IMG/VR virus record: IMGVR_UViG_3300000227_000001
Location: 1-34,917 of that record
Reading direction: 5' to 3' (one strand)
DNA: 34,917 nucleotides
Source of the DNA: a virus
Of this stretch, positions 19,354 to 20,139 are shown in pieces. Numbering within the stretch: the first letter of the stretch is position 1; every line of letters begins with the position of its first letter. The notes beneath the pieces were generated by a model. It worked only from the letters and a program-made list of their open reading frames with translations. It did not search any database and was not told the origin of the DNA. Both the position numbers and the translations under genes were made by a program.

Positions 19354-20139
19354 TTACAGCTCCCACCAACGGCAGGCGTCACCCGGCCGACTGTCACGGA
19401 TCATCTTGAGCTCCGACATCAGGTAGGCCGGGTCGTTCCACAGCAGCTTGGGCGTCTCAACCTGATCGAGCACCTGGCTGGCCAGACACAGCTTCGCGTC
19501 CTCCCAGTTGGTCTCGTACAGGTGGCTACTGGCCGCCGTCAGGAACAGCCTGCCAGGCGACACGGCATCAGCGGCCAGTCGGTGCCCATTCAGCAGGCCG
19601 CAGACGAGGTGGCTCAGCATGCTGAAGTTGAAGACGTCGTAGGGAACGCCCAGCCAGACGTCGCTCGACCGCATGAACACGTGGGCATTGAGCTTGCCGC
19701 CACGGAGGTTGAAGAAGATGGCCACCGTGCAGGGCACGTCCTTCGTCTGGGGCGGGCACTCGCGCCAGATCGTCAGGCCAGCTTGGCGGCTGTTTTCATC
19801 GGCCCGCAGCTTCTCGATGATGTAGGGCAGCTGGGCCACGATCTTGGGGCCGTAGGCGCCGAAAAAGCGCTCGCCGTCGTCGCTGAAGTCCTTGATGCGG
19901 CTGTTGTACGGGGCGATCGTCTCGACCCGGTCGTCACCAGTCAGGATCCAGAAGGCCTCGGCCGCCATGAACTTGTAGCTCAGGCTGCGGTCGGGCACGC
20001 GGAGCACGGGTTTCCGCATGTTCACCACGATGGTGCGCTGCGGAATCTCACGGGTCATCTTGCCGCGCGGTGCCACGAGGTCACCGTTGGTCAAGATGTC
20101 GTTGACGGCCTCAAGCCAAGTGCGTGAAAAGTCTTGCAT
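19354..20139 (-). CDS. Thymidylate-synthase-family enzyme with cytosine-type specificity residue (predicted dCMP hydroxymethylase or dCMP methyltransferase)
   Basis: An aaggag RBS precedes ATG 20139. PCTVAIFFNLRGGKLNAHVFMRSSDVWLGVPYD aligns without gaps to E. coli ThyA PCHAFF...YQRSCDVFLGLPFN and T4 gp42 MCTNTV...NMRSNDVVFGFRND. The catalytic Cys137 codon is at 19729-19731. The residue 31 positions downstream is Asp168 (19636-19638), as in T4 gp42 (C148/D179), not Asn as in ThyA (C146/N177). Confidence 0.8.
   Translation of the reverse strand: MQDFSRTWLEAVNDILTNGDLVAPRGKMTREIPQRTIVVNMRKPVLRVPDRSLSYKFMAAEAFWILTGDDRVETIAPYNSRIKDFSDDGERFFGAYGPKIVAQLPYIIEKLRADENSRQAGLTIWRECPPQTKDVPCTVAIFFNLRGGKLNAHVFMRSSDVWLGVPYDVFNFSMLSHLVCGLLNGHRLAADAVSPGRLFLTAASSHLYETNWEDAKLCLASQVLDQVETPKLLWNDPAYLMSELKMIRDSRPGDACRWWEL

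Follow-up and report, generated by a model that had tools for sequence, protein, structure and literature searches.

The minus-strand ORF at 19354..20139 of the viral DNA analyzed here (34,917 nucleotides in all; the window) encodes a 261-aa ThyA-family pyrimidine C5 transferase, and the locus raises the question of which nucleotide this protein acts on and what it makes of it. The ORF runs from 20139 down to 19354, and its translation contains PCTVAIFFNLRGGKLNAHVFMRSSDVWLGVPYD. Its start is well supported, with AAGGAG at 20151-20146 lying 7 nt ahead of the ATG at 20139; the stop codon of the upstream gene is 20152-20150. Pfam PF00303 (Thymidylat_synt) matched the protein with an E value of 1.4e-21 and 77 bits against a cut-off of 24.3, and the match spanned residues 7-235, corresponding to profile positions 2-235 of 266. 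Among PDB sequences, MilA and many ThyA chains were matched at 9e-16 to 1e-8, the best being 5b6d (MilA/BcmA, 9e-16). Given the strength of the PF00303 and PDB matches, family membership is not due to chance, and the ORF belongs to the thymidylate synthase superfamily (ThyA fold). The Pfam/PHROG label for this ORF is "thymidylate synthase."

We determined the active-site residues from a MAFFT alignment of 13 sequences that included the ThyA homologue, E. coli ThyA, and T4 gp42. The catalytic Cys137 (E. coli C146) occupies an invariant column, and its codon was read directly as TGC on the minus strand (19729..19731); the GAC codon of Asp168 (19636..19638, minus strand) was likewise read directly, and both codons lie where a sequence-only reading of this DNA had placed them. 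That reading had also claimed a gapless fit to E. coli ThyA and T4 gp42, and the alignment bears this out: the three sequences run without gaps relative to one another between the catalytic Cys and the specificity position. Asp168 aligns with E. coli N177 and T4 D179 by MAFFT, and HMMER sets "GVPYD" of the ThyA homologue against "GVPFN" of ThyA, which confirms the proposed Asp instead of Asn at the base-specificity position. Two further GAC codons on the minus strand, read directly and placed by the alignment, encode Asp134 (19738..19740; E. coli L143, T4 D145), at a position correlated with the product, and Asp160 (19660..19662), the retained counterpart of E. coli D169. The columns of E. coli E58, Y94, R126, R166, S167, and H207 and of the catalytic Cys were invariant across the 13 sequences, and that of Y209 was conserved in at least 90% of them.

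At E. coli positions 143/146/147/165/166/169/177, the signature residues D134/C137/T138/M156/R157/D160/D168 of the ThyA homologue read DCTMRDD, identical to T4 gp42 (DCTMRDD). The 5m-dCMP synthases of Xp12 and PaMx74 read NCPLRDD, the 5-hydroxy-dCMP synthase RB69 gp48 reads ECTMRND, and three reference dUMP hydroxymethylases read DCNNRDN. Moreover, R118 and S158 form the deoxyribose-type pair (E. coli Arg126/Ser167) and not the K133/A176 pair of MilA; Arg/Ser is deoxy-specific, and K133/A176 goes with the ribonucleotide preference of MilA (PMC5175136). According to published mutagenesis and a metagenome association, Asn at position 177 corresponds to dUMP and Asp to dCMP (PMC13326640; PMC8670742). 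An acidic residue at position 143 is a published correlate of water capture and thus of a hydroxymethyl product (PMC13326640); this rule is a correlation from few characterized enzymes, not biochemical proof, and its chemistry is not settled, since Asn rather than Leu occupies this position in both proven 5mC synthases. The D169N substitution marks 5-hydroxy-dCMP synthases of the RB69 gp48/DLP3 gp80 type (PMC13326640). Because Asp160 is kept where RB69 gp48 has Asn, the ThyA homologue does not carry this 5-hydroxy-dCMP signature.

DCTMRDD was fixed in the clade, being present in 118 of 120 close homologues, in 139 of 150 representatives of 50%-identity clusters, and in 74 of 75 IMG/VR module copies, the one exception differing solely by His at position 147. 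Asp at position 177 itself was found in 118 of the 120 close homologues (the remaining 2 were missed by the pattern scan) and in at least 147 of the 150 cluster representatives. In the protein library, 603 cluster representatives (50% identity) matched the ThyA homologue at E ≤ 1e-30. Pelagibacter phage HTVC200P carries a ThyA homologue with the same signature; a literature search for a dCMP hydroxymethylase in pelagiphages gave nothing relevant. The nearest characterized group overall was that of the dUMP hydroxymethylases (27-30% identity, E about 1e-22), and BLASTP against T4 gp42 gave 28% identity over 115 aa (E 9e-5). In a neighbor-joining (NJ) tree, the ThyA homologue grouped beside the dUMP hydroxymethylases, on a branch separate from T4 gp42, and the Xp12 clade formed another separate branch, closer to canonical ThyA. 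By BLASTP and this tree, the ThyA homologue does not fall in one clade with T4 gp42 as its ortholog. The gp42-like active site of the clade is therefore, judging from these sequences, either convergent or very old.

The cultured relative AXL3, a phage of Stenotrophomonas maltophilia D1585, has the same five-gene module around its own ThyA homologue, which is 54% identical to that of the window. Of 37 restriction enzymes, TasI (AATT) and Tru1I (TTAA) alone cut AXL3 DNA, and all 35 tested enzymes with G/C in their site failed, among them GC-only-site enzymes such as HaeIII, HpaII, HhaI, and SmaI (PMC7504290), a pattern that does not tell apart 5mC, 5hmC, a derivative, or modified G. AXL3 also has a separate ThyX (PMC7504290). 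Its ThyA homologue and those in JGI records are annotated as "thymidylate synthase," and that of PW916, another cultured relative, in GenBank as "deoxyuridylate hydroxymethyltransferase." Because of Asp at the N177 position, the published N/D rule, and the G/C-site restriction resistance of AXL3, the predicted substrate is dCMP rather than dUMP, as the sequence-only reading had anticipated. ORF 19354..20139 is probably a folate-dependent dCMP hydroxymethylase (5hm-dCMP synthase) that makes 5hm-dCMP within a cytosine-replacement module, and the best reading is that cytosine in the phage DNA is most likely replaced by 5hmC or a derivative.

The conserved module consists of genes for an O-methyltransferase-like methyltransferase (MTase), a MazG-like NTPase, a TMP-kinase/UDG-fold fusion, the ThyA homologue, and a dCMP deaminase. 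The dCMP deaminase family protein (18885..19352, minus strand) matched Pfam dCMP_cyt_deam_1 (2.1e-19) and PHROG dCMP deaminase (6.7e-36), and its likely start, the ATG at 19352, lies 1 nt past the stop codon of the ThyA homologue, as read directly at the junction. The nucleoside triphosphate pyrophosphohydrolase of the MazG/PRA-PH type (21049..21447, minus strand) matched Pfam PRA-PH (3.8e-12) and PHROG nucleotide pyrophosphohydrolase (2e-24). By Pfam and PHROGs, no ThyX, second ThyA, DHFR, glycosyltransferase, or carbamoyltransferase was found among the window ORFs, nor were aGPT-Pplase, Nmad5, or a clear 5-HMUDK-type DNA kinase. A 272-aa ORF at 29242-30060 was considered as a ThyX and rejected. 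When the module was searched by megablast against a phage collection, the MTase gene alone was matched (2 records, 76-78% identity), and the module therefore has no close sequenced relative there at the DNA level.

The gene directly upstream of the ThyA homologue (20150..21061, minus strand) encodes a 303-aa fusion of a P-loop kinase of the TMP/dNMP-kinase fold (about residues 1-167) with a domain of the family-4 UDG/UdgX-like fold (about residues 168-303), as assigned with Foldseek from an AF2 model (pLDDT 87.7). The model matched YorR and thymidylate kinases, and its C-terminal domain matched 1l9g (E 4e-5, TMq 0.59) as well as viral UDG-like proteins. By sequence, this domain gave nothing significant against PDB and Pfam, and a weak Pfam UDG match was obtained for 3 of 20 members of the fusion family; its UDG fold is revealed only by the predicted structure. 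The predicted fold of the kinase, together with a 73-column match to RB69 gp45, points to a mononucleotide kinase. Its assignment as a 5-HMUDK-type DNA kinase was unsupported: hhalign aligned it with the Sonora kinase at the P-loop only and aligned nothing with the Kuttervirus SE14 kinase. The kinase gene is absent from about a third of the related modules, and the phosphorylation step is therefore unaccounted for in those phages.

Family membership, all the diagnostic active-site residues, the conserved module, and the restriction resistance of AXL3 at G/C sites are shown by these data; the substrate, the product, and what each accessory gene does are inferred along the following lines, as would be any further change made to 5hmC by the O-methyltransferase-like enzyme. 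The five genes would be co-transcribed. The ThyA homologue would transfer the methylene of 5,10-methylene-THF to C5 of dCMP, and water would capture the intermediate to give 5-hydroxymethyl-dCMP, as in the T4 gp42 reaction. The MazG-like NTPase would convert dCTP to dCMP as a functional analogue of T4 gp56, both removing the competing canonical nucleotide and feeding the ThyA homologue; this role is proposed from the T4 paradigm and from MetaGPA co-occurrence. The TMP-kinase-like domain would phosphorylate 5hm-dCMP en route to the triphosphate, and the family-A DNA polymerase of the phage would insert the modified nucleotide, leaving the cytosine of virion DNA replaced. The dCMP deaminase would turn some of the dCMP into dUMP as a precursor of dTMP, and because the contig carries neither a ThyA nor a ThyX for dTMP, host ThyA would make dTMP.

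The closest parallel in chemistry and pathway logic is offered by T4. The ThyA homologue shares with gp42 the fold, DCTMRDD, the 31-residue Cys-to-Asp spacing, and the deoxy-type Arg/Ser pair, and the pathway logic is also that of T4, in that the genome encodes an NTP pyrophosphatase together with a dNMP kinase and a dCMP deaminase. However, the dCTPase analogue of the window belongs to the MazG/PRA-PH type where T4 has gp56, its kinase resembles TMPK rather than gp1 and is joined to a UDG-fold domain, and an O-methyltransferase-like gene is linked in place of a glucosyltransferase, which the window lacks. The CMP 5-hydroxymethylases MilA/BcmA are similar in Asp at the specificity position, Asp143 ("DVACT" versus "DVPCT"), and the hydroxymethylating chemistry predicted here; MilA differs in having K133/A176 where the ThyA homologue has Arg118/Ser158, and it works in a bacterial antibiotic pathway, not in the supply of DNA precursors to a phage. 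An Asp177 ThyA with a dCMP deaminase, PRA-PH/MazG, and PolA has already been published as the MetaGPA signature of cytosine-modified metavirome contigs (PMC8670742), and the window shows exactly this neighborhood. In the MetaGPA papers, carbamoyltransferase and 5mC-selective deaminase partners are described, and within the available portions no description was found of a linked class I methyltransferase or of a kinase-UDG fusion.

The linked class I SAM-dependent methyltransferase (21447..22259, minus strand) matched Pfam Methyltransf_23 (1.7e-14), and its best PDB profile match was the Hen1 MTase 3jwg (3.5e-5). Most of the solved structures nearest to it are O-methyltransferases (Hen1, UbiG, JHAMT, and HENMT1), and it scored 33.6 bits against the NCBIfam Hen1 cut-off of 340. 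"EVIEHM" and "NHIHE" of the MTase align with "EVIEHL" and "DHRFE" of Hen1; UbiG also has an E..EH motif. The E-x-x-E-H...H residues aligned in this way are presumably the metal ligands of Hen1. In all 75 testable IMG/VR loci of the MTase, a ThyA homologue of the D/T/M/D/D type lies just downstream (with the exact signature in 74), and the linkage to the ThyA clade occurs in two different phage backbones. We tentatively raise the possibility, itself doubtful, that this strictly linked and unusually conserved MTase acts on the product of the ThyA homologue, for example by methylating the hydroxyl of 5-hydroxymethyl-(d)C. Such methylation, at the nucleotide or the DNA level, could give 5-methoxymethylcytosine; our literature search retrieved no paper describing that base as natural in DNA.

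Other readings of the ThyA homologue have to be weighed. An Xp12-type dCMP methyltransferase would complete folate hydride transfer and so yield 5-methyl-dCMP and 5mC in the phage DNA, and the adjacent deaminase would turn 5m-dCTP into dTTP, as proposed for Xp12-like phages. Asp177 and the adjacency of deaminase and ThyA in a siphovirus replication module are common to the ThyA homologue, Xp12, and PaMx74; a subset of deaminases beside such ThyA homologues prefer 5mC, and the restriction pattern of AXL3 is like that described for Xp12-group phages with 5mC. We nonetheless consider this unlikely. The ThyA homologue has D/T/M at positions 143/147/165, where both proven 5mC synthases have N/P/L, and although this is a correlation, it revises the earlier statement that a hydroxymethylase and an Xp12-type methyltransferase are indistinguishable by sequence alone. 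Furthermore, acidity at 143 has been correlated in the literature with water capture (PMC13326640), the Xp12 clade sits on its own branch nearer canonical ThyA, and the contig has no DHFR by Pfam and PHROGs, whereas Xp12 and PaMx74 both carry one next to their deaminase-ThyA pair. A dCMP substrate with a final base other than plain 5hmC, arising by other C5 chemistry or by conversion of a 5hmC intermediate by the MTase or another enzyme, also has a low probability in our view. Flavin-dependent 5-hydroxylation has recently been shown for the ThyA fold (PMC13326640), and linkage of the O-methyltransferase-like gene in 75 of 75 loci and two backbones favors an added step; on the other hand, the ThyA homologue is without the D169N hydroxylase marker and has the active-site signature of T4 gp42, and the MTase gene may have stayed in the module for some unconnected reason.

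A dUMP hydroxymethylase, as PW916 is annotated in GenBank, would receive dUMP from the deaminase, and 5hmU or a hypermodified thymidine would take the place of thymine. In overall sequence the ThyA homologue is closest to the Kuttervirus (ViI) and Sonora/PAKlein3 (PaMx11-like) enzymes (E about 1e-22), on the hydroxymethylase branch of the family; Asp143 is shared with them, a deaminase adjoins the gene, and Xp12, PW916, and Sonora are all classified in Mesyanzhinovviridae (PaMx74 is listed under genus Pamexvirus only). This reading is nevertheless highly improbable: in place of the Asp, Thr, and Met that the ThyA homologue has at 177, 147, and 165, each of the three references has Asn; their accompanying 5-HMUDK and aGPT-Pplase genes have no clear counterpart in the window, which also lacks Nmad5 and whose kinase matches that of Sonora at the P-loop only; and blocked GC-only sites with cut AATT/TTAA sites in AXL3 are the opposite of what would be expected from a thymine-only modification. 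An ordinary thymidylate synthase converting dUMP to dTMP, as annotated in the AXL3 and JGI records, accords with the Pfam/PHROG names and with a deaminase-ThyA pair as the classical dTMP pathway, but is barely credible with N177, L143, H147, and Q165 all substituted. The protein scored far below every NCBIfam ThyA equivalog cut-off (69.4 bits versus 174.55 for TIGR03283; 55.7 versus 327 for NF002497), and AXL3 has its own ThyX.

A dCMP hydroxymethylase in this clade would correct the annotations in AXL3, the JGI records, and PW916 and would offer an explanation for the G/C-site restriction resistance of AXL3 DNA. It would also indicate that 5hmC-type cytosine replacement is common well beyond T-even phages; such modified DNA has effects on restriction and may also influence CRISPR sensitivity and sequencing-library bias. 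The ThyA homologue and its module would then be an ordinary addition to a known phage DNA-modification pathway, with the accompanying MTase as an unexplained extra, and both the MTase and the kinase-UDG fusion offer concrete leads toward an additional modification step, should there be one. If the MTase does act on 5hmC, the module would represent a novel pathway of cytosine hypermodification; it would be shared widely among environmental phages, with AXL3 and PW916 as cultured examples. AXL3 is regarded by its authors as a promising phage-therapy candidate (PMC7504290).

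The ThyA homologue (the query) was read as a 261-aa ORF on the minus strand running from 20139 down to 19354 and including the segment PCTVAIFFNLRGGKLNAHVFMRSSDVWLGVPYD. Given the spacing of AAGGAG, 7 nt upstream, and the stop codon of the preceding gene at 20150-20152, we accepted 20139 as the real start of the coding sequence. A mechanically listed 315-aa ORF was rejected, since it overlaps the preceding gene. Almost all of the Pfam Thymidylat_synt domain is covered by the match to the query (1.4e-21), whose PDB matches included MilA and dozens of ThyA chains. Direct codon reading placed the catalytic Cys137 at 19731-19729 (TGC) and Asp168 at 19638-19636 (GAC), both on the minus strand and exactly where the sequence-only reading had located them. 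In a MAFFT alignment, the Cys-to-Asp stretch was collinear in the query, E. coli ThyA, and T4 gp42, and D168 fell in the column of N177 (E. coli ThyA) and D179 (T4 gp42), which confirms the Asp proposed at the base-specificity position.

In this family, Asn at position 177 (E. coli ThyA numbering) denotes use of dUMP and Asp use of dCMP (PMC8670742; PMC13326640). An acidic residue at position 143 correlates with water capture and a hydroxymethyl product, and D169N is the hallmark of flavin-dependent 5-hydroxy-dCMP synthases, described only recently (PMC13326640). R126 and S167 characterize deoxyribonucleotide users, versus the Lys and Ala of MilA in CMP users (PMC5175136); the query carries the deoxy-type pair as R118 and S158. 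We compared positions 143/146/147/165/166/169/177 with those of fetched, proven reference enzymes. The query reads DCTMRDD, as does T4 gp42 (product, 5hmC); the corresponding residues are ECTMRND in RB69 gp48 (5hoC), NCPLRDD in Xp12 and PaMx74 (5mC), DCNNRDN in three dUMP hydroxymethylases (5hmU), and LCHQRDN in E. coli ThyA (dTMP). Hence, the earlier view that sequence cannot separate a hydroxymethylase from an Xp12-type methylase did not hold: these columns do discriminate, by correlation, and they point to 5-hydroxymethyl-dCMP as the predicted product. By the published residue rules, Asp at 177 also supports the preference for dCMP over dUMP suggested previously. We regard dCMP as very probably the substrate, and the complete statement, that the query acts on dCMP and makes the hydroxymethyl product, as likely, with somewhat less assurance.

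The main caveat is that this function is read from active-site residues rather than from orthology with an assayed enzyme. T4 gp42 matched the query at 28% identity over 115 aa (BLASTP; E, 9e-5), and the query clade is not orthologous to it. In overall similarity, the dUMP hydroxymethylases were nearer, forming a neighboring branch in a neighbor-joining tree, while the Xp12 group occupied a separate branch closer to canonical ThyA. The query is best described as a predicted dCMP hydroxymethylase of a large uncharacterized clade non-orthologous to T4 gp42. The family is very large and environmental: a 90%-clustered database gave 2471 matches, with the signature common to 118 of the 120 closest, and when the 50%-identity representatives were scanned exhaustively with HMMER, 8316 proteins passed a threshold of E <= 1e-3 and 603 passed E <= 1e-30, the best 150 including 139 with DCTMRDD. 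Among sequenced phage relatives, identity to the query was 60% for a Manatee Spring contig, 56% for Pseudoxanthomonas phage PW916, 54% for Stenotrophomonas phage AXL3, and 47-49% for Pelagibacter phages HTVC200P and HTVC119P (47% in the latter). GenBank names the PW916 gene (L002 3280-4098) "deoxyuridylate hydroxymethyltransferase" and the AXL3 gene (L003 4977-5786) "thymidylate synthase"; both products have Asp at the N177 position, and these names are probably wrong for the query clade. The HTVC200P "thymidylate synthase" (L010 4947-5765) shares the D/T/M/D/D dCMP-hydroxymethylase signature with the query, given which modified cytosine may occur in abundant marine phages; no methyltransferase, kinase, MazG, or deaminase gene was found within 5 kb of it.

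In the window, the ThyA homologue is the fourth of five closely packed minus-strand genes, following those for a class I SAM methyltransferase (21447-22259), a MazG/PRA-PH NTP pyrophosphohydrolase (21049-21447), and a 303-aa kinase-UDG protein (20150-21061), and preceding a dCMP deaminase gene whose ATG, at 19352, comes one base after the ThyA stop. Farther along the same strand lie genes for an SNF2 helicase, two exonucleases, a family-A DNA polymerase, and a primase, while the plus-strand half encodes terminase, portal, capsid, tail, and lysis proteins; this content identifies a tailed-phage genome. The window spans the whole 34,917-bp public contig, and the genome may be incomplete, since related contigs measure 38-40 kb. 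Deaminase, Asp177 ThyA, PRA-PH, and PolA make up a neighborhood of metavirome contigs experimentally selected for modified cytosine (PMC8670742), so that the query sits in an already published type of cytosine-replacement neighborhood. No DHFR, second ThyA, glycosyltransferase, or carbamoyltransferase was found in the window, nor does it encode a dTMP-synthesis enzyme (ThyX, canonical ThyA), unlike AXL3, which has ThyX (gp50).

In the proposed pathway, the MazG-like enzyme would hydrolyze dCTP to dCMP. Cys137 would attack C6 of dCMP while Asp168 reads the cytosine N3/N4 face, a methylene would be transferred from 5,10-methylene-THF, and water admitted by Asp134 would capture the exocyclic methylene to give 5hm-dCMP, a step derived from the residue rules and by analogy with T4. 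Phosphorylation of 5hm-dCMP would fall to the TMPK-like domain, as its fold and an hhalign match to RB69 gp45 (probability, 78%) suggest, and the phage PolA would incorporate the modified nucleotide. The deaminase would provide dUMP to host ThyA, like the T4 cd gene product.

An AlphaFold model of the 303-aa protein (pLDDT, 87.7) predicts a thymidylate/dNMP-kinase fold for the N-terminal domain. The C-terminal domain, modeled separately, has a predicted truncated family-4 UDG/UdgX-like fold (versus 1l9g: E, 4e-5; TMq, 0.59), and its BFVD matches were viral UDG-like and PolA-fused domains. The protein contains the motifs GESFAER...YQWPF and HPQxWKRF. Its gene is missing in roughly one-third of related modules and is replaced in many close relatives by a 131-aa ORF (e.g., L032:7220-7615 in IMG/VR) with only a sub-threshold match to DUF1599/"nucleotide modification associated domain 1" (E, 0.07); the kinase of podovirus contig MW202510 lacks the UDG domain. 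Given this variability, the core module comprises the methyltransferase, MazG, ThyA, and deaminase. A stand-alone homologue of the UDG-like domain (34% identity) occurs in Ralstonia jumbo phage RsoM2USA, and a domain of similar structure is present in gp315 of Bacillus phage G, encoded four genes away from the ThyA homologue gp319 of that phage.

In AXL3, all five genes are present in identical order. When its virion DNA was challenged with 37 restriction enzymes, TasI (AATT) and Tru1I (TTAA) alone cut it; none of the 35 enzymes whose sites contain G or C did so, among them HaeIII, HpaII/MspI, HhaI, SmaI, and NotI, with GC-only sites (PMC7504290). This pattern fits replaced cytosine and is hard to square with a thymine-only modification. 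It is compatible with any cytosine derivative, and formally with guanine modification as well.

The methyltransferase was the only module part that megablast found in PW916, a close relative of AXL3, and the Manatee Spring contig, and it shows 73-96% identity among 120 database homologues. Among solved structures, those closest to it are mostly O-methyltransferases (bacterial Hen1, 3.5e-5; UbiG; juvenile-hormone acid O-methyltransferase; HENMT1), with weaker matches to phosphoethanolamine N-methyltransferases and an mRNA cap N7-methyltransferase. E124, E127, H128, and H167 of the methyltransferase align to the Hen1 E-x-x-E-H...H motif, the residues of which are metal ligands in Hen1. The phage collection contained the methyltransferase in just four different phages, represented by five records, each with a ThyA homologue. 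We fetched 80 IMG/VR loci through this gene, 75 with sufficient downstream DNA; in all 75, the ThyA homologue followed immediately, with the D/C/T/M/R/D/D signature in 74 and His at position 147 in one. Across 64 loci, median identity to the window copy was 75% for the methyltransferase, 68% for deaminase, 61% for ThyA and kinase, 47% for the UDG-like domain, and 45% for MazG; in 41 of these loci, the methyltransferase was better conserved than the other three core genes. MW202510 (MW202510.1) has a different backbone from the window and a methyltransferase only 31% identical, and encodes, at L016 6929-10171, methyltransferase, NTP-PPase, thymidylate kinase, pyrimidine hydroxymethylase, and dCMP deaminase, in the gene order of the window and with DNA polymerase next, which suggests that the module is transferred or retained as a block. 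HTVC200P, HTVC119P, and Bacillus phage G, all with a ThyA homologue, had no methyltransferase homologue at E <= 1e-5. The methyltransferase thus always accompanies ThyA, and ThyA sometimes stands without it, as expected of an enzyme tailoring the ThyA product; most of these loci belong to a single phage lineage with conserved synteny. We found no description of natural 5-methoxymethylcytosine in the literature and consider such a tailoring role unlikely. The query alone is moderately interesting; what deserves experiment is the linked O-methyltransferase-like gene.

Directly upstream of the methyltransferase gene, a 217-aa minus-strand product (22363-23016) gave weak histone H1-like DNA-binding matches (NCBIfam hist_H1_lk_Burk, 4e-4); its counterpart in relatives has a faint match to Pfam HC2 (histone-like). 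The polymerase-primase interval holds minus-strand genes for a 93-aa DnaJ J-domain/zinc-finger protein (30744-31025) and a DUF3310 protein (31032-31316); the corresponding AXL3 module likewise includes a DnaJ-like gene. Shortly downstream of the deaminase, a 49-kb relative with the same module (L098) encodes at 6927-7184 a protein of the Acb2/Tad1-hairpin family of anti-CBASS/anti-Thoeris sponges.
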